Shown here: piece by piece, positions 6,627 through 15,442 of the stretch
How the letters are laid out: each line of letters begins with the position of its first letter
How positions within the stretch are numbered: position 1 is the stretch's first letter
IMG/VR virus record: IMGVR_UViG_3300029247_000012
Coordinates: 1 to 41,059 of that record
Strand: one strand, 5' to 3'
DNA length: 41,059 nucleotides
From: a virus
Translations under genes and position numbers: made by a program
The notes under the pieces: generated by a model
The model's database searches: none
The model's input: only the letters and a program-made list of their open reading frames with translations
Told to the model about the DNA's origin: nothing

Positions 6627-7424
6627 ATGCGAGGAATTGACATCTCCAAGCACAACATAATCCGATCTTTCCCGGCGCTGAGAGCCGAGGGCATCGAATT
6701 CTGTATCGTCCGCGCGGGGTACGGCACGTCCGTTGACCCGAAATTCGCTGGGTACATAAAATCGGCGAAGGACGCTGGAATGCTCGTCGGCGTGTATTGG
6801 TTCTGCTACGCCCGCGATACCGTCGAAGCACGGCGCGAGGCTGAGGCCTGCGCGAACACGCTGAACGGGTACAAGCTCGATCTGCCGGTGTTCTACGACC
6901 TTGAATACGACACCGAAAGATGCGCGGCGAAGACACAAGTGAAGTACACAACAAAGTTACGGACGGACATTATCGAAACATTCTGTACCGAAATCACGAA
7001 GCACGGGTACAAAGCGGGCGTGTATACAAACCCCGACTACTGGCTCTACAAGCTCAATTCCGACCGGCTCGCAAAGTGGGCACTGTGGATTGCCGCTTAC
7101 CGGCAGTCTGACTGCAAGGCATCCTTCGCGACCACCTCGCCGTCCGACCTCCCCGCCGCTTACAGTAACGCCATAATATGGCAGTTCGGCAAGTGTAAAT
7201 TCACGAAAGCCGTCGGCGACGTGGATATCAACTACGGGTATGGCATCAAGCCCGCCGCGGCGAAGACCTACAAAGTCGGCGACACCTACACCGTCAAGGC
7301 GGGCGACGTCTACACGACCGGGCGCAAAGTTCCGGCGCGTGTCGTCGGAAAGACGTACACCGTCCGACAGGTCCGCTCCGGCGCGGTGCTGCTCGCGGAA
7401 ATTAATTCCTGGGTGACGGTGTGA
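6627..7424 (+). CDS. Endolysin, GH25 muramidase with C-terminal SH3-like cell-wall-binding region
   Basis: N-terminal motifs GIDISKHN...GIEFCIVRAGYG...GVYWF...DLEYD are typical of glycoside hydrolase family 25. The C-terminal repeat KVGDTYTV...GKTYTVRQV resembles SH3b. Confidence 0.9.
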   Translation: MRGIDISKHNIIRSFPALRAEGIEFCIVRAGYGTSVDPKFAGYIKSAKDAGMLVGVYWFCYARDTVEARREAEACANTLNGYKLDLPVFYDLEYDTERCAAKTQVKYTTKLRTDIIETFCTEITKHGYKAGVYTNPDYWLYKLNSDRLAKWALWIAAYRQSDCKASFATTSPSDLPAAYSNAIIWQFGKCKFTKAVGDVDINYGYGIKPAAAKTYKVGDTYTVKAGDVYTTGRKVPARVVGKTYTVRQVRSGAVLLAEINSWVTV

Positions 7425-7777
7425 GATACTTAAAGCGGCTGATACTCGCGGTGCTGATATACCTCGCCGTATATCTCCCGTTTATCGCCGTCCTGCAAGC
7501 CCTCACCGGCACCGACCTGACCGCCGCCTTTTCGGTCGGCGGGATTGTCGGGGCTGTGGAACTCGCTCTCGGCAGTGTCATTAAAATCACCGAAAACAAA
7601 GAGATAAGCAAGAAAGGATTTATCGAACATGGACAAGATGAATATAACACCGATACTGGAACTGGCGGTGAAGCTGATCTTCGCGGCAGTGACGATTTTC
7701 CTGATCCCGAAGATCAAGGAACTTCTGACGGCGAAAGTCTCGGAGGCGGATCAGAAGAAGATCATCCGCTGGACTGA
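7421..7777 (+). CDS. Two-TM small membrane protein, holin/antiholin candidate (118 aa as drawn)
   Basis: The GTGA start overlaps the endolysin stop. Two hydrophobic helices lie in the first ~65 aa. The last ~50 aa are an acidic low-complexity tail encoded out of frame over the next gene. Confidence 0.5.
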   Translation: MRYLKRLILAVLIYLAVYLPFIAVLQALTGTDLTAAFSVGGIVGAVELALGSVIKITENKEISKKGFIEHGQDEYNTDTGTGGEADLRGSDDFPDPEDQGTSDGESLGGGSEEDHPLD

Positions 7778-7982
7778 ACTCGCAGTCCAGGCGGCTGAGG
7801 AAGCGGAGCGTTCCGGGCTGATCGACAAGAAAGCGAAGTATCAGTACGCAAAAGATTTCCTCGAAAAGCGCGGCGTGACCTTTGACGCCGACGCCATGCA
7901 GGCGCTGATCGACTCCACCGTGTGGGAGCTGTTTAACCAGTTCAAAGAAGATTCCGACTCGGGCGCCGAAAGCGAGGCGTGA
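7629..7982 (+). CDS. Holin, LL-H-like family (117 aa)
   Basis: A single N-terminal TM (LAVKLIFAAVTIFLIP) is followed by a helical soluble domain, matching the architecture of LL-H type holins. The gene is adjacent to the endolysin. Confidence 0.6.
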   Translation: MDKMNITPILELAVKLIFAAVTIFLIPKIKELLTAKVSEADQKKIIRWTELAVQAAEEAERSGLIDKKAKYQYAKDFLEKRGVTFDADAMQALIDSTVWELFNQFKEDSDSGAESEA

Positions 7983-8196: not shown

Positions 8197-8206
8197 ATGT
8201 CATGAA

Positions 8207-8233
8207 ACCGTCGCGAAAGCGGCGGTTTTTCTT
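8207..8233 (+). terminator. Rho-independent terminator ending the late/lysis operon
   Basis: Stem ACCGTCGC / GCGGCGGT (one G-U pair), GAAA tetraloop, then TTTTTCTT. Confidence 0.7.
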
Positions 8234-8235
8234 CG

Positions 8236-8264
8236 TTCACTTTGCACAAAAATCGTGCTATAAT
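8236..8264 (+). promoter_or_regulatory. Sigma-A type promoter of the first accessory unit
   Basis: -35 TTCACT (8236..8241), 17-bp spacer, and TGc extended -10 TATAAT (8259..8264). Confidence 0.6.
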
Positions 8265-8301
8265 ATATACGCCGGATGATAAATCCGAGTATATATACAG
8301 G

Positions 8302-8883
8302 ATGGTGAAATCCATGGCAGAATTCGCAACAAACGGCAAGGCGAACGCGGCGCTGACTACCGGCATTATCGGTACGGCGGGCGTCGGTCTGGGACTGCTT
8401 AACGGCGGGCTGAACGGACTTTTCGGCGGCTACCGGAACGGCGGCTGCAACGAAGATCACGTCGTCGACCGCTACGAGGCAGGACAGGCGGCGAGAATCG
8501 CGCAGCTGGAAACCGAAGTCAAGCTGAGGGACGCGAACACGTACACCGACCAGAAAATGCTCGAGATGTACAAATACTTCGACAGCAGGACCCGTGCGCT
8601 TGAGGCGTCCGACGCGGCTCAGGCAGTCACTAATCAGCGCGTCGCTGACAGCTTTGAGGCGGTGCACAACGATATCGTCTGCACTAAGAACGAGCTCTAC
8701 TCGGCAATCCGCAACGAAGCTGAGAAGCGCTGCTGCGGCGACAACTCGATCGTCACCTACGCGAACGCGACATTTTATCCCAAGATGGTCGCGGACGTCA
8801 CGACCGGCACGGCGACCACCGCGCAGAGCACGTACAACCCGATCCCGCAGTGCGGGTGCGGGTGCGGGTGCGGCTGCAACTGA
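8302..8883 (+). CDS. Hypothetical protein with Gly-rich hydrophobic N-terminus, coiled coil and C-terminal CGCGCGCGCN tail
   Basis: ATG 8302 (alternative 8314) lies downstream of the predicted transcription start. ATG 8242 lies upstream of the -10 box and is rejected. Confidence 0.65.
   Translation: MVKSMAEFATNGKANAALTTGIIGTAGVGLGLLNGGLNGLFGGYRNGGCNEDHVVDRYEAGQAARIAQLETEVKLRDANTYTDQKMLEMYKYFDSRTRALEASDAAQAVTNQRVADSFEAVHNDIVCTKNELYSAIRNEAEKRCCGDNSIVTYANATFYPKMVADVTTGTATTAQSTYNPIPQCGCGCGCGCN
8851..8877 (+). repeat. Hexanucleotide tandem repeat (TGCGGG)x3 then TGCGGC TGC, encoding the (Cys-Gly)n C-terminus
   Basis: Read directly at the 3' end of the 8302..8883 gene. Confidence 0.9.
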
Positions 8884-8921
8884 CGGCAGGGGCGGCAACC
8901 GCCGCCCCATGAGGTGATAAA

Positions 8922-9260
8922 ATGGTAACTCTGGCACAGGTGCAGGCGGGTGTTGAGAAGTATCTCGAGACCGAAATACTGTCGAAAATCCCCGGCTGGC
9001 AGAAATGGGTCCTCGGCGCGGCGGCGGCGCGTATGCTGTCGCGGTCGGGAGAAATTTTTAATACATTGAAAAATAACCCCGTCGTCTCGGCGATGGGCGT
9101 CATAGACGAGCAGGATCAAATCGACATCGACGCGGTTTACCGCGAATTCGCGGCTCAGGCACAGCGCGGAGCAGTCACTTTCGACGTGCCGCTTGTCGGC
9201 GCGCTGACTCTGACCGCCGCCGATGTGGACAAGCTTTACGGATATATCATAGGAGGCTAA
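8922..9260 (+). CDS. Hypothetical protein (112 aa)
   Basis: GAGGTGA RBS. Preceded by a perfect 8-bp GC hairpin (8889..8908) with no T-run. Confidence 0.65.
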   Translation: MVTLAQVQAGVEKYLETEILSKIPGWQKWVLGAAAARMLSRSGEIFNTLKNNPVVSAMGVIDEQDQIDIDAVYREFAAQAQRGAVTFDVPLVGALTLTAADVDKLYGYIIGG

Positions 9261-9261
9261 A

Positions 9262-9546
9262 ATGAAAGACGAGGTAATGCGCGGCGTCATCTGGATGACG
9301 ACCGACGGCATCAAGGACGCGGGGATGGCGTACGACTACGCCGAAGACGCGAAAGAAGCAGGAAAGCCCGAACTCGCGGCGCTTTTTATCGAAGACGCGA
9401 AGTACCGGCTCGGGAAGGTCAAAGAGTGGTATGACAGGGCGATGACCATGCACGGAGCTGTCGACGGAGTGACCGACGAGCTGATCGAGTGGCATCGGCA
9501 GGCTTACCGGGAACTGCTGGACAGGGTCATGAAATTCAAGACTTAA
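9262..9546 (+). CDS. Hypothetical helical protein (94 aa)
   Basis: AGGAGG lies 6 nt upstream, and the start is 1 nt after the upstream stop. Confidence 0.65.
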   Translation: MKDEVMRGVIWMTTDGIKDAGMAYDYAEDAKEAGKPELAALFIEDAKYRLGKVKEWYDRAMTMHGAVDGVTDELIEWHRQAYRELLDRVMKFKT

Positions 9547-9551
9547 GCCGG

Positions 9552-9579
9552 AGGAGCGGAAACGCTCCTTTTTTCTTTT
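9552..9579 (+). terminator. Rho-independent terminator
   Basis: Stem AGGAGCG / CGCTCCT with GAAA loop, followed by TTTTTCTTTT. Confidence 0.8.
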
Positions 9580-9605
9580 ACGTTCATAAATCCTTTACAA
9601 ATATT

Positions 9606-9646
9606 ATTTGATGTTTTCTCGAAAACCCCTTGACAAAACATCAAAT
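9606..9646. promoter_or_regulatory. Operator candidate: perfect 12-bp inverted repeat bracketing the -35 box
   Basis: ATTTGATGTTTT (9606..9617) and AAAACATCAAAT (9635..9646) are exact reverse complements. The right arm abuts the -35 hexamer (sharing position 9635) and fills the first 11 nt of the promoter spacer. Confidence 0.6.
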
Positions 9647-9658
9647 CTGTGGTATAAT
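9630..9658 (+). promoter_or_regulatory. Consensus sigma-A promoter of the accessory island
   Basis: TTGACA (9630..9635), 17-bp spacer, and TGg extended -10 TATAAT (9653..9658). Confidence 0.8.
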
Positions 9659-9719
9659 ATATACATCAAAGGGAAAGCGGGAAGCCGATCGGAAAGAACC
9701 GCGGAAAGAGAGAACAAAA

Positions 9720-10064
9720 ATGAAGCTTACAAATGAAATGATCGAAAAGGCAATAGCAGCAATCGAGGCTGACGAAACTCACGAAATCTTCGGAATCCGC
9801 ACTCAGGACGTCCCATTCGTGATGGGCGAAATCGATCACAAGTCGCTCGTCTGGGTCGACGGTGAGATGACCGACGAAGAGCTGGACGGTGTCTGCGCGA
9901 CGGTCATCGATACAAACGATATCGAAAGGTCTCTGAACCGTCACAATCGCGAAGGCTACTACGGCGAACACATCGCGATCCTCGCTGGTGGCTACTCAAT
10001 GTCCGGCGAGGACGCCGGCGAAATCATCATGGAGACCCCCGACGTCATCGCGATCCTCGCGTAA
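9720..10064 (+). CDS. Small acidic hypothetical protein (114 aa)
   Basis: ATG 9720 lies downstream of the predicted transcription start (the ORF-track start at 9630 is the -35 box itself). By my count there are about 25 D/E versus 7 K/R. Confidence 0.65.
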   Translation: MKLTNEMIEKAIAAIEADETHEIFGIRTQDVPFVMGEIDHKSLVWVDGEMTDEELDGVCATVIDTNDIERSLNRHNREGYYGEHIAILAGGYSMSGEDAGEIIMETPDVIAILA

Positions 10065-10069
10065 ATCAA

Positions 10070-10147
10070 CCGCTCCTGAGCCGTCGAGCGCATCGGCGGT
10101 ATCCCAAAAATCAAGCTGACGCACCGGCTACACGGCGAGAAAGAGAA
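10070..10147 (+). repeat. Conserved intergenic leader element, copy A
   Basis: About 85 percent identical to 10487..10564. The shared string is CCGCTCCTGAGCCGTCGAGCG.ATCGGCGG.ATCCCAAAAATCAAGCTG....ACCGGCT..ACGG.GAGAA.GAGA. Confidence 0.85.
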
Positions 10148-10151
10148 AATT

Positions 10152-10481
10152 ATGGAGTACAAAGCAAGATTGACGGTTAGTGAATGGACAAACGGTTCCG
10201 GATGGGACTACGAAAACGATGAGGTCAAAAGCTGGGACATCAGCGAAGGTGCTCTTGACAGCTGGAAGCAGCTGTTCAAAGACCGTGACAGATCACTTTT
10301 CGATTACGTGGTCGACGGTCTCAACGATCGCGACGATGACTACGACGAGGATCCGGACGACGAGGAAGGCGACACCAAGTGGACAATGCAGCTCGTCGAA
10401 ATCGACGACGAGGGCGATGAGAAGGTTCTCGCGTCGGTCTCCTACTGGGGGTCGGAGCTGACACACCGCGACGAAGAGTGA
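10152..10481 (+). CDS. Extremely acidic small hypothetical protein (109 aa)
   Basis: About one third of residues are D/E, including DRDDDYDEDPDDEEGD. Preceded by leader copy A. Confidence 0.65.
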   Translation: MEYKARLTVSEWTNGSGWDYENDEVKSWDISEGALDSWKQLFKDRDRSLFDYVVDGLNDRDDDYDEDPDDEEGDTKWTMQLVEIDDEGDEKVLASVSYWGSELTHRDEE

Positions 10482-10486
10482 AGTCC

Positions 10487-10564
10487 CCGCTCCTGAGCCG
10501 TCGAGCGAATCGGCGGCATCCCAAAAATCAAGCTGTCCTACCGGCTCGACGGGGAGAAGGAGAT
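10487..10564 (+). repeat. Conserved intergenic leader element, copy B
   Basis: See copy A. It contains a perfect 9-bp stem CCGTCGAGC (10498..10506) / GCTCGACGG (10544..10552). CTCCT (10490..10494) is complementary to the AAGGAG SD (10557..10562). Confidence 0.85.
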
Positions 10565-10570
10565 AGAATC

Positions 10571-10924
10571 ATGAAAATCTTAAGCTTCTGGGGCTGGGAG
10601 TCCAACCCATTCGCAAACCCCGATCTCGCAAACAACGGCGGCGGCTACTCGCAGCCGGAGGGTGGCGCACTTGTTGAGCTTGCCAATGGCGAGCTTGTTG
10701 TGGTCGACTACTTCGACCACAATTGCGGCGACTTCGGTCGCGACGCTCACGTCACTGTCGAGCTGCTCGACGGTCGCTCCTGGGGATTTTCCTTCGGGAG
10801 CAACAGCGCAGACGACTTCGGTGAGGTCGCTCCGAGCTTCCGCCATGCCACCGGCGCAGACCTCGGCGAGGTCGCCGATCTGGTCATCGACGCAGTGACC
10901 GCTGCCATGGGCGTAGCTTGCTGA
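10571..10924 (+). CDS. Small acidic hypothetical protein (117 aa)
   Basis: AAGGAG lies 8 nt before ATG 10571. The ORF-track start at 10478 lies in the preceding gene and leader and is rejected. Confidence 0.65.
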   Translation: MKILSFWGWESNPFANPDLANNGGGYSQPEGGALVELANGELVVVDYFDHNCGDFGRDAHVTVELLDGRSWGFSFGSNSADDFGEVAPSFRHATGADLGEVADLVIDAVTAAMGVAC

Positions 10925-10936
10925 GAGGAGCGACAC

Positions 10937-11842
10937 ATGGCAGGAATAATCTCATACAAGCGGCTCTCAAGGCTGCCTCGCGTCGTGCTCGAGGGAACCA
11001 TGCTGCACAAAATCCGGGCGTGGTTTGAAGAAAACCGCCTATCGCCGCTCGTCCCGCCGATTTTTAATCGTTTTGTTATTGAGTACCCGGCGAGTATCAA
11101 ATCCTCCGTGCCGGTAAGCGACGTCCCGCGCTTCCTTGCAAACGGCTTTGAGCGGCTGCGGGACGATGAGCTCGACCAATATGCCGAAATGAAAATCCCG
11201 GCTGAGTACGACCGTCTCGAGCCGCACGAGTGGCTCAAGTGGACGGTGAAAACGGAACTGCTGGTCGAATACGATCCGTCACTGACCAAAGCAATAGTCA
11301 CGGTGTACGATCAAGAAAAGCGACGGTACACCATCGACCTCGATTACGACGACCTCGACACCAAGACCGGCATCTGGCGTGCCGGGGTGACCGCCGACGA
11401 GGCGACCGAGGAAGAAGCGCTCGCAGCCGTGCAAGAGAACCAAGAGCACGCCGAAACGGTCATCCGCGGCATTGTCGCAGTGCAAAGCTACGTACTCTAC
11501 CATCGCTCGGAGCTGATCGCCGCTCCGAAGGTGATCAAAGTGAAGTCAAAGCCCGCCACAGCTGCTACCGGCAAAAAGCAGAAAAGACAATCGCCGGACA
11601 AGACTGCTGTGATGCTCAAACACCGGAAGCGACAAATCATACTGATCCGCGAATCCGATCCTCTCCCGCGCAAAGAGTACAACTACCGCACCCTGGCGTG
11701 GAATGTTCGCGGGCACTACGCCCGACGCGGAGCCGACAAGCATCTGACCTACATCGCGCCGTACATCTGCCGACGCGGAGACGAGAAAAAGAAACCCCGA
11801 GCGGCTGAGTACCGCATCACGGAAGGAGATAAAAAAGAATGA
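10937..11842 (+). CDS. Hypothetical protein (301 aa) with a basic C-terminal region
   Basis: GAGGAG lies 7 nt upstream. No motif was recognised. The C-terminal K/R-rich segment carries WNVRGHYARRG. Confidence 0.7.
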   Translation: MAGIISYKRLSRLPRVVLEGTMLHKIRAWFEENRLSPLVPPIFNRFVIEYPASIKSSVPVSDVPRFLANGFERLRDDELDQYAEMKIPAEYDRLEPHEWLKWTVKTELLVEYDPSLTKAIVTVYDQEKRRYTIDLDYDDLDTKTGIWRAGVTADEATEEEALAAVQENQEHAETVIRGIVAVQSYVLYHRSELIAAPKVIKVKSKPATAATGKKQKRQSPDKTAVMLKHRKRQIILIRESDPLPRKEYNYRTLAWNVRGHYARRGADKHLTYIAPYICRRGDEKKKPRAAEYRITEGDKKE

Positions 11843-12264
11843 AAAAAGTCATTAAAGGCGCCGTCTGCGACACGGAGACAGCGACCAAACTCGGGACGTG
11901 CGACCACGACATCACCAACCGGTTATGTTGGTGGTCAGAAACGCTTTACCGGACAAAATCCGGGAAGTACTTCATCCACGGCGAAGGAGGACCCGGCAGC
12001 CGATATGCCAAAGCCGAAGACGACGGGCACTGGAAGAGCGGAGAGCAGATCGACGTGGTTTCCCGCGAAGCCGCTGAAGGGTGGGCGGAGGAGCATCTGG
12101 ACGGAGACGGATATATCGCCGCCTTCGGCGTGCCGGATGAAGTGCCGCGGATCACCGTCGCACTGACTCCGGAGAACCGGAAGAAGCTCGAAGGTGTTCG
12201 GGCGGAGAACGGAATGACGTTCGTTGAAATCATCAACGACGCGATTAAAGCATATAAGAAATAA
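11839..12264 (+). CDS. Hypothetical protein with C-terminal ribbon-helix-helix-like domain (141 aa)
   Basis: The ATGA start overlaps the upstream stop. The C-terminal ~40 aa (ITVALTPENRKKLEGVRAENGMTFVEIINDAIKAYKK) fit the CopG/RHH strand-helix-helix pattern. The N-terminal domain is seen by eye in other mobile-element proteins. Confidence 0.65.
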   Translation: MKKVIKGAVCDTETATKLGTCDHDITNRLCWWSETLYRTKSGKYFIHGEGGPGSRYAKAEDDGHWKSGEQIDVVSREAAEGWAEEHLDGDGYIAAFGVPDEVPRITVALTPENRKKLEGVRAENGMTFVEIINDAIKAYKK

Positions 12265-12274
12265 GGAGAATATC

Positions 12275-12613
12275 ATGAAAAATTATCGTACTTACGAAAA
12301 ACAATTCATCGGGGAAAGCAACTGTGCGGCTCTGGTCGCGGTCGGCATGAAGCCCGAAGCGGAACGGGCGGAAGGTGCTCACTGGATGAAAACTCAGCCG
12401 ATTGCATTCGGCGAAGATGGCGCATATATGGCGCGTGTCGTCGACGAAGAGTGTGAAATCCCGAGCCATTACAAGCTCGAAGCCACCTTCGCACACTGGC
12501 TGAAAATATATGACGACAACGAGATGGCTTTCAGCGCCCGCGCGAAGGAAATTCGCATTTATCAGGCGGGATCAATGGGGACAATCATTCAGCTAATCGG
12601 AGCGCGTGAATGA
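12275..12613 (+). CDS. Hypothetical protein (112 aa)
   Basis: AAGGAG lies 7 nt before ATG 12275. This is the last gene of the island. Confidence 0.65.
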   Translation: MKNYRTYEKQFIGESNCAALVAVGMKPEAERAEGAHWMKTQPIAFGEDGAYMARVVDEECEIPSHYKLEATFAHWLKIYDDNEMAFSARAKEIRIYQAGSMGTIIQLIGARE

Positions 12614-12618
12614 GTAAC

Positions 12619-12648
12619 AAAAAACCGAGGGGCTATCCCCTCGGTTTT
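12619..12648. terminator. Bidirectional terminator between the accessory island and the integrase (also an attP candidate)
   Basis: AAAAAA, stem CCGAGGGG / CCCCTCGG with loop CTAT, then TTTT. It lies between convergent genes. Confidence 0.75.
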
Positions 12649-12650
12649 CG

Positions 12651-14186
12651 TTATTTTGTCGCAAGCGAGACCATAAAGATGATATATGGTGTTCGCCTGA
12701 GACCGATGTGGTGGGGCAAATCGGAGCTCAGGCGAACACCGTCGCCCTCGCTCTCGATCTCGCCGAGGTCGTCCAGCGTGACGTCGACCTCGTTTTTGCC
12801 GCTGCCGAGCGGATCGAAGATCACCTTCAGCCGGTCATCGAAGACGAAGACCTTGACCAGGAAGGTCTGGAAAAGCTGCGCTCGGTACTTTTTGTCCTCG
12901 ATGTCCCCGCCGCGGAAACTCTTCAGGTATCCGACCACCTGATCCCGCGTCACGTCTATCTGACTCGTCGTCAGCATCGCCAGCTGCTCCGTGATCCTCG
13001 TGTTTTCCGCCTCGAGCTCCATCAGCCGCGCCTTCGTCGATTCCGTAAAAATCCCCGCCTCAATCGCCGCGAGGATATTTTTTATCGCCTTCGCGTTCTC
13101 CGCCTTTTCCGCCTCGAGCATCTTTATCTCCGGCTGGTCCTTATGCTGACGCTGAAACGCCATCACCTCGTCCGCGATCTGGTCGATGATCTTGTCACTC
13201 ATGATCCGCTCCGCGAGTGCCTTCGCGACCGCGTCCTCGATCTGACGCCGACCGACGTGCTCTTTGTCGCAGCCGGTTCCCGTCTTCCGACCGGCACACG
13301 CATAGTAATGATAAACCGTGCCCGCTCGACCCGTGCCGCACACGCCGGTCATCGCGTGTCCGCATTTTCCGCAGTACAGTTTGCCCGTCAGCTGATAATC
13401 AGCCGAGGGGCTTATTTTTTTTCGCTTCATCGCCATCATCGCCTCCGTGTAAAGCTGTCTGTCTAAAATCGGCGGCATCCCGCCCTCAGTGCGGACGCCG
13501 TCGAAAATATAAATTCCGAGATATCGCTCATTTCCGAGGATTGCGCCGTAACTGCTCCGCCCCCACTTGCCGCCGGTCCGGGTCTTCAGCCCGCGGGCGT
13601 TAAGATCCATCGATATCGACGCGATGGTCTCTCCTGACGCTACTCGCGTGTATATCTCGCGCACGATCTGCGCCCGGGGCTCGTCGATCTCAAAGCGACC
13701 GTCCGCGCCGGACTGATAACCGAAAGGCGCAGGACCGTTTGATTTACAGCTCTGCGCGTTGTCCGCCTGCGTCCGCTTGATGTCCTCGCCGAGATTTTCC
13801 GAGTAGAACTGGTTCACGGACATCATCGTCCGGAGCGCGAAGCGACCGGCGGCTGTGTTGCCGAACTCTTCCTTCGCGTACAGGACGTTGACCTCGTTTT
13901 TAGTCATCTCGACTTCAAAATTTAACGCGTTCAACATATTTCGCGCAATTCTGCTCGATTTATATGCTATAATTGTATCAAAGATTTTTTTACCGGCGTC
14001 CCGGCGCAGGCGCTGAAACTGCGGGCGGCGGTCTGAGCGACCGCTTATCGCCGCGTCGGCGTAAACGTCAATGACCGTCAAGCCGTTCGCCGCCGCGAAA
14101 GCCCGGCACTCCGCGACCTGCTGCTCTATCGACTCCTCGCGCTGATTGTGCGATGAAAAACGGGCATATATTACGGCTCTGCTCAT
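12651..14186 (-). CDS. int: Large serine recombinase (phage integrase), 511 aa
   Basis: The N-terminal resolvase motif VIYARFSSHNQ carries the catalytic Ser. A recombinase domain, the zinc ribbon CGKCGH...YYAC and a C-terminal coiled coil follow. Confidence 0.92.
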   Translation of the reverse strand: MSRAVIYARFSSHNQREESIEQQVAECRAFAAANGLTVIDVYADAAISGRSDRRPQFQRLRRDAGKKIFDTIIAYKSSRIARNMLNALNFEVEMTKNEVNVLYAKEEFGNTAAGRFALRTMMSVNQFYSENLGEDIKRTQADNAQSCKSNGPAPFGYQSGADGRFEIDEPRAQIVREIYTRVASGETIASISMDLNARGLKTRTGGKWGRSSYGAILGNERYLGIYIFDGVRTEGGMPPILDRQLYTEAMMAMKRKKISPSADYQLTGKLYCGKCGHAMTGVCGTGRAGTVYHYYACAGRKTGTGCDKEHVGRRQIEDAVAKALAERIMSDKIIDQIADEVMAFQRQHKDQPEIKMLEAEKAENAKAIKNILAAIEAGIFTESTKARLMELEAENTRITEQLAMLTTSQIDVTRDQVVGYLKSFRGGDIEDKKYRAQLFQTFLVKVFVFDDRLKVIFDPLGSGKNEVDVTLDDLGEIESEGDGVRLSSDLPHHIGLRRTPYIIFMVSLATK

Positions 14187-14189
14187 TGC

Positions 14190-14930
14190 TCAAAACTGCA
14201 TCTGCATGCCGGGATACGCAATAACATCATAGTGGTCGATATCCGCAAGTGCGACCTTGTTCGCGTCGCCGATATTTGACGTCTTAAACGTCCCCTTCGC
14301 GCCCGCCACGATCTCATCGGTATATGTCTTCATCACGCCGAGGACTTTTCCGTCGGCGTCATACATAATCACCGCGACCTCGATCATGCTCTGGTCCTCT
14401 ACGTCGATGTTCTCGACGCGCCCGACCACCTCGAGCGTCCCCATGACGTCATCCTCGCTGAACGAAACATCACTGACCGGGTAGCGCATGTTCGGGATTT
14501 TCGCCTCGACCGCCTTATAGGTCGGGACGACTTTATAGTCTCCCTCCGCCGAAACCGTCTGCTCGCCGTAGATGACCGCCGTCTCGCCCGGCGACAGCAC
14601 CGTCGGCGTCACAGCCGGCAGCGTCATCGCGTCGACGAGCTTACCGTCCGACGTCTCAATGTCCATGTTGATGTTTGACAAATACAGATCGCAATTGCCG
14701 GTATTTTTGACCGTCGCGATTCCGACCACCCACACCGTGCCGATAGAATTCGTAAACACCTTCGTCGTCACGTCGGTCAGCTCCGACGCCGCTTCGCTCT
14801 TTTCAGCCGTCGTCCCTTCCTTGCCGTCCCACGATCCAGTGCCGACCGCAATGTCGGAGGACGCGCAGCCGGTCGCCGCGAGCATCGCAAGCAGCAGCAC
14901 CGCGGTCACAGTTTTTTTCATCATCATCAT
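14190..14930 (-). CDS. Secreted lipoprotein with two tandem beta-rich domains (superinfection-exclusion candidate)
   Basis: GGGAGAGG RBS precedes the MMMMKK start at 14930. The signal peptide has lipobox LAATGC. Two similar ~90-aa segments follow. The longer ORF-track start has no RBS and is rejected. Confidence 0.8.
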   Translation of the reverse strand: MMMMKKTVTAVLLLAMLAATGCASSDIAVGTGSWDGKEGTTAEKSEAASELTDVTTKVFTNSIGTVWVVGIATVKNTGNCDLYLSNINMDIETSDGKLVDAMTLPAVTPTVLSPGETAVIYGEQTVSAEGDYKVVPTYKAVEAKIPNMRYPVSDVSFSEDDVMGTLEVVGRVENIDVEDQSMIEVAVIMYDADGKVLGVMKTYTDEIVAGAKGTFKTSNIGDANKVALADIDHYDVIAYPGMQMQF

Positions 14931-14971
14931 AAAGCCTCTCCCTTTTAGAGTTTTTTCAGCCCCTCGCCGCG

Positions 14972-15442
14972 TCAGCCGCGAAGCCATCCCACCGACGGGT
15001 TTACCACGTCGATCGTCAGCCACGCACACATCAGCGCCACCAAAGCCACAACAAACACCATCACCCGGTGCTTCTCCTGCCGCTCCCGGTATAAAAGCGT
15101 CCGCAAGTCAGTGATCCTCTGGGTCAGCATCTCGATCTGCGCCACATATGACGCTATCAACCGCTGCGTCGACACATCCATGTCGGCGTCGGGGCTCGTC
15201 GTCTGGTCATCACCGCTCGCGTCCGGCTCGTCGTCATGATCCGGCTGCGCCGTCAGCCACTGCATCGGCACATCCAGCGCGTCCGCCACCAACGTCAAAG
15301 TCATCCCGCTCGTCGACTCCCCGCGCATAAGGCGCTTGATAGTCCCTTCGGAAACTCCCGCCGCGTCAGCAAGCCGCGCGTTCGTCAGTCCCTTCTCGTC
15401 CATCTTCGCGCGCAGCCGCGCCGGATCGACCGTGATGCTCAT
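14972..15442 (-). CDS. Membrane-anchored XRE-family HTH regulator (156 aa)
   Basis: N-terminal HTH (LTNARLADAAGVSEGTIKRLMRG), an acidic linker, a coiled coil, and one C-terminal TM helix (VMVFVVALVALMCAWLTI). Confidence 0.8.
   Translation of the reverse strand: MSITVDPARLRAKMDEKGLTNARLADAAGVSEGTIKRLMRGESTSGMTLTLVADALDVPMQWLTAQPDHDDEPDASGDDQTTSPDADMDVSTQRLIASYVAQIEMLTQRITDLRTLLYRERQEKHRVMVFVVALVALMCAWLTIDVVNPSVGWLRG

Follow-up and report, generated by a model that had tools for sequence, protein, structure and literature searches.

A six-gene island between the lysis genes and the integrase

The virus record IMGVR_UViG_3300029247_000012 spans 41,059 nt (hereafter the window, whose coordinates are used throughout) and represents the complete genome of a temperate siphovirus-like phage. 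Between its lysis genes and its integrase gene lies an island of six + strand genes, g1 to g6, all annotated as hypothetical in the source record. In this work, we analysed the island together with its relatives in other phages, and the comparison of loci indicates that the region is one arrangement of a swappable array in gut Clostridia phages, not a fixed system.

A first-pass annotation of the window, made from the letters alone, had described six + strand genes between a strong promoter and a bidirectional terminator and had read them as accessory cargo in the lysis-to-integrase hotspot. We confirmed the promoter, the terminator and all six open reading frames (ORFs), which are real and each have a Shine-Dalgarno-like site. 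The reading as hotspot cargo was also borne out, the island having its own strong promoter with a candidate operator. The features of the island and its borders are as follows (positions, strand, description; "unstranded" marks features without an assigned strand).

9550..9571, +: upstream intrinsic terminator, 9-bp stem followed by a T-run; ends the lysis/late genes
9606..9646, unstranded: candidate operator, inverted repeat ATTTGATGTTTTCTC / GACAAAACATCAAAT bracketing the -35 box
9630..9658, +: sigma-70-type promoter, TTGACA-17-TATAAT with an extended -10 TG, 12/12 consensus matches
9659..9719, +: 5' leader, whose start AUAUACAUCAAAGGGAAAGCGG is kept in many related islands
9720..10064, +: g1, optional cassette, 114 aa, pI 4.19; phrog_18666 (function unknown), E 2e-12
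10065..10154, +: inter-cassette element, copy 1: CGCUCCUGA, hairpin at 10080-10100 (GCCGUCGA-GCGCA-UCGGCGGU), AUCCCAAAAA, a second small hairpin and the g2 ribosome-binding site (RBS); covariance model (CM) score 111 bits
10152..10481, +: g2, optional cassette, 109 aa, pI 4.05, 32% D+E
10482..10571, +: inter-cassette element, copy 2, hairpin at 10497-10517; CM score 101 bits
10571..10924, +: g3, optional cassette, 117 aa, pI 4.05, motif ANPDxANNGGGYSQP...CGDFG
10937..11842, +: g4, optional cassette, 301 aa, pI 9.3, K/R-rich C-terminal third
11839..12264, +: g5, 141 aa, N-terminal domain (aa 1-99) plus C-terminal ribbon-helix-helix (RHH; aa 104-141)
12275..12613, +: g6, optional cassette downstream of g5, 112 aa
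12621..12648, unstranded: bidirectional intrinsic terminator, 12-bp stem with 7 GC pairs, flanked by A6 and T4CGTTATTTT

Since the terminator at 9550-9571 closes the upstream lysis/late genes, the island forms a separate transcription unit. The terminator at 12621-12648 is common to the island (+) and the integrase gene (-), and it should be usable from either strand because an A-run precedes its stem and a T-run follows it.

Cassettes are exchanged around a constant g5

We gathered loci through homologues of g4, g5, g2, g1, g3 and g6 plus their contigs; of the more than 120 loci fetched, about 40 islands of this type entered the comparison. The cargo genes assort independently, and the order g1<g2<g3<g4 is always kept. 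The arrangements found were g1-g5, g1-g2-g5, g1-g3-g5, g2-g3-g5, g3-g5, g3-g4-g5, g2-g4-g5, g2-g3-g4-g5, g4-g5 and g5-g6, and no fetched locus besides the window holds all six genes. The earlier treatment of the six genes as one system does not survive this many combinations. Every gene except g5 is dispensable in close relatives: g1 is carried by a subset of islands, and g6 follows g5 in L118-L121 and is missing from the otherwise near-identical L011-L013. Copies of g3 that are 98-100% identical sit in islands with differing g4 and g5. In every island examined g5 lies at the 3' end, where it either closes the array or is followed by g6 only.

Across the islands we counted at least 16 cargo clusters, 10 of the 16 with a pI below 5 and several with a net charge of -14 to -53; recognisable domains (zinc ribbons and an AP2 DNA-binding domain) occur in one cargo cluster only. 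The related islands adjoin serine integrases, tyrosine integrases or P22-like terminase genes, or sit on a Rep3 plasmid-like element, and the same promoter stands at the head of all of these loci regardless of backbone.

The promoter, its candidate operator and g5

The window has five perfect-consensus promoters, of which one heads the island and the other four lie in the lysogeny switch. The arms of the inverted repeat (9606-9620 and 9632-9646) are 15 nt long and complementary at 14 of 15 positions; a repeat of equal quality was found in 0 of 2000 shuffles and in 0 of 906 other 91-nt windows of the phage. The five perfect TTGACA-17-TATAAT promoters start at 9630(+), 15596(-), 16274(-), 16310(+) and 17760(-); most of them have TGG/TGA before the -10 box and a T-run/CGAAAA upstream, a style that is repeated in related phages. 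The leader fold is of no significance (z-score -1.0), and an Rfam search over 9400-12800, which covers both the leader and the inter-cassette element, returned nothing at E<=1.

The product of g5 is the candidate regulator. Its family comprises 426 homologue clusters at 90% identity, and its C-terminal 38 residues show a beta-alpha-alpha pattern. Eight of 10 g5 family variants match RHH Pfam models (one over the gathering score, the RHH_1 matches being generic), so the RHH domain that the first-pass annotation had placed among genes 4-6 holds at the level of the family, the window copy staying sub-threshold. The N-domain is better conserved than the RHH (mean identity 0.62 versus 0.40; 986 of 1035 pairs), and it occurs alone in an archaeal virus and in a Paracoccus phage. 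The AlphaFold 2 (AF2) model of g5, with a predicted local distance difference test (pLDDT) score of 87, has a beta-rich N-domain and C-terminal helices. Foldseek against the PDB gave weak Pur-alpha matches only (E 0.3, probability 0.85), which we treat as a lead, and the sole match of g5 among PDB sequences was to the RHH region of MatP (E 0.44). A tandem pair of g5-like genes, the first consisting of the N-domain only, was seen on a Candidatus Limiplasma chromosome (L041:4596-5429).

The connection between g5 and the promoter comes from their covariation. In class A (the window, L011-13, L046, L118 and L120), the RHH strand RITVALTPENRKKL is always accompanied by TTTGATGT/ACATCAAA arms. In class B (L003, L007, L014, L020, L038, L050, L113, L115 and others), the strand AMSI/VILP.K.RERLE always goes with TCGAGAAA/TTTCTCGA sites, three per locus. 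A third RHH type and a third promoter variant are shared by L001 and L047 (class C). Cargo crosses between the classes, with g3 98-100% and g4 85% identical, and both integrase types are present in both classes. The upstream 94-aa gene does not track class either, its identity to the window copy being 71-98% in A and 72-97% in B. The promoter and g5 thus stay matched across 0.8-2.4 kb of freely exchanged DNA, which favours a functional coupling of the two in which g5 would regulate its own operon. The pattern argues for cognate regulator-operator specificity, and on this sequence evidence g5 is probably an Aca-like (anti-CRISPR-associated) autorepressor of the island promoter.

Further copies of these control sequences were noted. 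A third half-site, ACATCAAA, lies in the leader at 9663-9670; it was rejected as a class marker, as it is present in class B islands too. Several relatives carry, roughly 200 nt upstream of the island promoter, an additional perfect promoter that has a conserved leader and drives an ORF of about 45 aa (L011:3987, L014:3157, L003:4483, also L046), and the window is without one. On the Rep3 plasmid-like element L002, three near-identical island-type promoters (4389, 4821 and 5448) each precede a small gene, so the regulatory module itself recurs there.

A structured element between the cassettes

The g1/g2 and g2/g3 spacers hold 77-nt direct repeats, 88% identical, which flank g2 and had been missed by the first-pass annotation. 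They are two copies of an element of about 85 nt. Its 5' half consists of CGCUCCUGA, an 8-bp stem with a GCGNA loop and then AUCCCA, and its 3' half of a small hairpin and an RBS. In the majority of related islands, the same element stands between unrelated cassettes. With the covariance model we obtained 39 matches at E<=0.1, 22 of them at E<=1e-6; every match is on the + strand and inside such an island, and the whole window has just two. The usual layout is one full copy after the first cassette, with weaker partial matches (the 3' half alone) before later cassettes.

We then left the stem free in degenerate-stem scans of IMG/VR and metagenomes, where the permissive metagenome pattern, which yields mostly chance matches, served as an internal background. 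Among the 155 pattern matches, 47 pair at 8/8 positions, none at 7/8 and 108 at 6/8 at most, against about 0.04 chance matches expected at 8/8. Compensatory changes occur at 4 of the 8 stem pairs (11 distinct cores), nine of the 10 distinct aligned variants retain a U.G pair, which the tenth replaces by C-G, and the loop is free to vary at its fourth base. In the aligned variants 100% of cells are paired and the covariation score is 0.41 versus 0.19 for shuffles, with 0 of 500 shuffles as high; because these variants were picked for pairing, we take the bimodal pairing distribution as the primary evidence. Judged by this pairing pattern, the 5' half of the element is a structured RNA hairpin, new and absent from Rfam.

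A stop codon precedes the motif by 4-10 nt and the next start follows it at 40-65 nt, and g5 lies within 2.3 kb downstream in 14 of 21 informative motif-fetched instances, an instance being informative when g5 was found or at least 3 kb of downstream sequence was searched. The hairpin probably acts at the RNA level, through processing, stability, read-through or translational control of the downstream cistron. At the DNA level, the direct repeats are a likely substrate for cassette gain and loss, and they would explain why these events preserve gene order; in the window, for instance, g2 would be lost by recombination between the two copies, leaving the g1-g3 arrangement, as in L050 and L116. 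An integron-like cassette idea was dropped, since the adjacent recombinase varies in type or is absent and the conservation is of the RNA type (U.G-tolerant, strand-specific).

The hairpin module was also seen after stop codons in unrelated gut-phage contigs (L124, L126/L134, L128, L135, L136, L137/L139, L161 and L172). Its neighbours in L124 are a small RHH gene on the upstream side and XRE genes on the downstream side, and L139 has a variant-stem copy 415 nt before a g5 homologue.

Cargo genes g1-g3 and g6

The first-pass annotation had described g1-g3 as unrelated and strongly acidic, and this proved accurate. Their pI values are 4.05-4.19, and they have no mutual similarity, because all-vs-all BLASTP assigns them to separate clusters. 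They account for three of the five genes with a pI below 4.3 among 64 crude genes of the phage, and are mutually adjacent. Searches of all six island proteins against Pfam, NCBIfam and PADLOC (E<=1) gave no match. PHROGs gave two families only, both of function unknown (phrog_18666 for g1 and phrog_10678 for g4), and PDB sequence searches with g1, g2, g3 and g6 gave no match. Across the Pfam, PHROG, PADLOC, NCBIfam and PDB searches, no gene of the island could be assigned a known domain or a housekeeping function; the earlier description had recognised no catalytic motif among genes 4-6.

A Blautia phage and a Mu-like Mannheimia phage encode distant relatives of g1, the latter in its early region. 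Within its 3' part, g1 also contains an exact 15-nt direct repeat, CATCGCGATCCTCGC, at 9971-9985 and 10046-10060, which encodes a repeated …IAIL… peptide. The g2 sequence includes DRDDDYDEDPDDEEGD, and its family has 32 homologue clusters, whose alignment shows a conserved Trp-rich fold and, within it, an acidic loop that varies in length. Homologues of g3 are present in 68 IMG/VR loci and are widespread across the accessory and early regions of Firmicutes prophages. A relative of g6, 46% identical, is a protein of Fusobacterium phage phiRTG5.

The large basic gene g4

The basic C-terminal region noted earlier among genes 4-6 corresponds to the K/R-rich C-terminal third of g4. The AF2 model of g4 has a mean pLDDT of 70, with a confident N-terminal alpha/beta domain (residues 6-190) followed by a K/R-rich linker; the values fall to 25-52 across the last 50 residues, which include the invariant C-terminal motif WNVRGHYARRG..K.L.YIAPYICRR. 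In one public gene call, g4 begins at Met22 (280 aa). We consider the 301-aa start correct because the first 21 residues hold the family-invariant K8, L13, P14, R15 and L18.

The g4 family is small, with 15 clusters at 90% and 63 representatives at 50%. Foldseek with the AF2 model against the PDB gave no match (TM-score at most 0.2) and a profile search of PDB sequences gave nothing, and Foldseek against BFVD found uncharacterised phage proteins only, the best viral match being in Bacillus phage PBC2. A Pfam scan of 51 distant g4 relatives found nothing, and tblastn of g4 and one distant relative against GenBank phages found no match. The stop codon of g4 overlaps the start of g5 (ATGA, a 4-nt overlap), and close g4 homologues (>=40% identity) have g5 directly downstream in 9 of 9 distinct loci. 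Distant g4 homologues stand alone in other prophages, and the identities of g4 and g5 are uncoupled (65%/91% in L010 versus 85%/51% in L007).

In islands without g4, a basic protein of about 250 aa is encoded just before g5 and overlaps the g5 start (L015:4242-4997, L038:4261-5004, L113:5198-5953 and L115:4599-5345). It carries four zinc ribbons and a C-terminal AP2 DNA-binding domain. As a remote relative of g4 it was rejected (hhalign probability 0.4%).

Genome setting

The remaining landmarks of the window are listed below.

1 to ~8000: tail genes
~8200 to 9546: lysis genes
12651..14186, -: large serine recombinase (integrase), Pfam Resolvase, Recombinase and Zn_ribbon_recom, phrog_95; context, outside the module
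14.2-17.8 kb: lysogeny control region
29972: terminase
37815: tape measure

By TerL, the nearest relative among cultured phages is Clostridium scindens phage phiCs5676-1 (43% identity). The relatives found are from gut Bacillota/Clostridia-like sources only, metagenome-assembled genome labels being unreliable for host assignment.

Some neighbouring genes were also noted. Between the integrase and repressor genes, the gene at 14190-14987 (-) encodes a product with a lipoprotein signal (…LLLAMLAATGCASS…); this is the typical site, and a lipoprotein the typical type, of a prophage superinfection-exclusion protein. In the lysis region, the ORF at 8242-8883 (+) has a Cys-Gly repeat at its end (…PQCGCGCGCGCGCN), and the homologous position in L021 ends …CSDCSNY. 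Relatives have a second variable hotspot between the integrase-proximal helix-turn-helix (HTH) gene and the repressor (about 7373-7978 (-) in L012, L118 and L120; 7456-8142 (-) in L011/L013), where some have an Mrr_cat/NA-iREase1 nuclease and others a Cu_amine_oxidN1-domain protein.

Interpretation and alternatives

Our best explanation is that the island is an autoregulated, anti-defence-type cargo operon of temperate gut-Clostridia phages, similar in logic to operons of anti-CRISPR (acr) and aca genes, and we assign this a probability of about 0.5. The consensus-strength promoter would drive interchangeable small, mostly acidic proteins (here g1-g4, plus g6). The g5 protein would dimerise via its C-terminal RHH and bind the inverted repeat around the -35 box, so that transcription would burst at DNA entry and be throttled with the accumulation of g5, or remain at a low level in the lysogen. 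The cargo proteins would inhibit host immune components, and the N-domain of g5 may itself be an effector or sensor, by analogy with the bifunctional AcrIIA1 and AcrIE10. The role of the cargo is less secure than the regulatory part because no cargo gene has a known relative, and we put an anti-defence function for it slightly below even odds. Accordingly, the candidate anti-defence cassette of the first-pass annotation is upheld in its acr-aca-type architecture and not in any match to a known anti-defence family.

Several points weigh against this explanation. Known anti-defence, defence and toxin families were unmatched by g1-g6 and 10 further cargo families in a search set of Pfam, NCBIfam, annotated PHROG, PADLOC and PDB. 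The argument is one of guilt by association without an anchor, because no cargo gene (g1-g6, 16 pan-island clusters) is homologous to an anti-CRISPR (Acr) or other anti-defence protein. The window's own g5 RHH lies below every Pfam threshold by itself, and repression by g5 is inferred from covariation in which two many-locus classes amount to few independent events. The repeat of Aca14, an RHH-type regulator compared below, covers the -10 box, whereas the arms in the island bracket the -35 box. The island lies at the end of the late region, not among the early genes, and g4 is large and basic, unlike typical inhibitors. Finally, moron operons under autoregulation might just as well contain genes for defence or host fitness.

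This last point leads to an alternative in which the genes are morons expressed from the prophage for the benefit of the lysogen, through superinfection exclusion, defence against other phages or host fitness, with their level set through g5 autoregulation and no burst at the onset of infection. A position between lysis and integrase genes with an own promoter and terminators is the classic moron site, negative autoregulation suits steady lysogenic expression, and the neighbouring hotspot in relatives holds an Mrr-like nuclease. Nevertheless, we consider it unlikely, though credible. The proteins show no enzymatic, NTPase, nuclease or membrane domains, and the PADLOC search found no model match, which also speaks against the defence cassette proposed earlier as an option. 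Moreover, the cargo proteins are small, soluble and acidic, as inhibitors more typically are than defence effectors, and the island also occurs in non-integrating contexts, beside terminase genes or on the Rep3 element.

Alternatively, the island could serve regulation or host takeover unrelated to immunity (host transcription, replication or the lysis-lysogeny decision), with g4 and g5 as nucleic-acid-binding regulators. The basic g4 with its conserved Arg/Lys motif, the AP2 DNA-binding domain in the alternative gene before g5, the combination of an RHH with a weakly Pur-alpha-like N-domain in g5, and the apparent likeness of the RNA motif to a nut site are all compatible with such a role. 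We regard it as improbable. The RNA motif is found inside the island only, not after the early promoters of the phage, and a core function is disfavoured because all cassettes except g5 come and go among near-identical phages.

It is very unlikely that g4 and g5 form a toxin-antitoxin or abortive-infection pair, with g4 as toxin, g5 as RHH antitoxin-autorepressor and g1-g3 and g6 as passengers. The 4-nt overlap, the position of g5 immediately downstream in 9/9 close-g4 loci and the common autoregulation by RHH antitoxins fit such a pair. However, it is undermined by the solitary distant g4 homologues and the uncoupled g4/g5 identities, as well as by family size, the 426 clusters of g5 exceeding the 15 of g4 and g5 occurring mostly without g4. 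Furthermore, the RHH of g5 is C-terminal and its larger conserved domain N-terminal, unlike typical RHH antitoxins, and g4 matches no toxin family. A fixed system of six cooperating parts, for which co-transcription from one promoter to one terminator might speak, has next to no probability left, being refuted by the co-occurrence data.

Returning to the anti-defence-type operon, a more speculative extension, which we would call a long shot, is that g5 is a dual regulator and the island a self-contained platform for gene expression, of a new kind. Its RHH would set promoter specificity and its much better conserved N-domain, with a fold weakly like that of the single-strand-binding Pur-alpha, would recognise the equally conserved post-stop hairpin (CGCUCCUGA, stem and GCGNA loop), controlling read-through into the downstream cassette or its translation; or the hairpin would belong to a nut-like antitermination device of Gram-positive phages. 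RHH classes would then diversify like immunity groups, avoiding cross-repression by resident prophages, and the RNA-plus-DNA circuit would be analogous to that of Aca2, with unrelated parts. If this is true, gut phages possess in the hairpin a new RNA regulatory motif that is portable, and the 16 cargo families amount to a catalogue of anti-defence proteins that are likewise new.

Comparison with known systems

The DNA-mimic idea put forward earlier for g2 finds little in its favour. The protein resembles Ocr and ArdA in its small size and strong negative charge, and the charge alone speaks for the idea. In contrast to these proteins, the acidic run of g2 is a variable-length loop in a Trp-rich fold, and no Pfam or PDB sequence match was obtained.

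For the hairpin, the closest comparison is with nut sites, in which boxA reads CGCUCUUA, boxB is a hairpin with a GNRA-like pentaloop, and nutR stands after cro. As a lead, CGCUCCUGA can be set beside boxA CGCUCUUA, and the G-N-R-N-A pentaloop has a free fourth base, as in boxB. Like nutR after cro, the element usually follows the first gene of the operon. The lambda-type anatomy, boxA plus a boxB hairpin, is established (PMC2724277, PMC2800207). The island differs in that its hairpin directly abuts the boxA-like sequence and in that its host is Gram-positive; in this phage the motif is inside the island only, not at early promoters, and no N-like protein was identified.

Among regulators, Aca14 (WP_005725436.1) is an RHH-type Aca from Proteobacteria (Pasteurella) (bioRxiv 10.64898/2026.07.27.740549). 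It resembles g5 as an RHH protein in anti-defence operons with varied cargo and an inverted repeat in the promoter. The g5 protein adds a 100-aa N-terminal domain, by which it is set apart from the description of Aca14. Two-domain, locus-constant proteins with one DNA-binding autorepressor domain are exemplified by AcrIIA1, AcrIE10, AcrIF24 and AcrIF25, and the predicted structure suggests that g5 shares the architecture of this bifunctional Acr-Aca type, with an RHH and a second, independently folded domain. AcrIIA1 is a two-domain repressor and Acr (bioRxiv 10.1101/787200) and, as g5 in the island, it is the constant member beside variable Acrs in Listeria. AcrIE10 is a bifunctional RHH-type Aca with an N-terminal RHH (PMC13530269), so the domain order is reversed in g5. 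No sequence or fold match between g5 and AcrIIA1, AcrIE10, AcrIF24 or AcrIF25 appeared in the PDB searches.

Anti-defence genes have mostly been found by guilt by association with Aca regulators. Of the anchors known so far, almost all belong to the HTH proteins and come from hosts such as Proteobacteria, Listeria and Streptococcus, and no described Acr or counter-defence gene is known to us from gut Clostridia. The g5 family, with its 426 clusters, is a candidate anchor in gut Clostridia phages, and the locus supplies a defined promoter/operator code together with at least 16 cargo families, that is, a place to look for phage counter-defence genes. If the hairpin controls cassette expression or exchange, it would give a mechanical account of order-keeping shuffling and a second handle for finding similar arrays.

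In acr-aca operons, promoters are near-consensus and contain an inverted repeat within the core promoter, which is repressed by the cognate Aca, and Aca1-Aca13 are HTH proteins (PMC9410906). The island has the same near-consensus promoter with an inverted repeat in the core promoter, and likewise combines variable small, often acidic genes with a conserved DNA-binding gene in one operon, shows cognate regulator-operator pairs, and occurs on phages, prophages and plasmids. It differs in that its cargo includes no known Acr, in that its regulator is an RHH instead of an HTH protein, with a larger conserved extra domain, and in that a conserved structured element stands between the cassettes. What is new here is therefore an Aca-like logic with an unrelated two-domain RHH regulator, together with an inter-cassette RNA motif.

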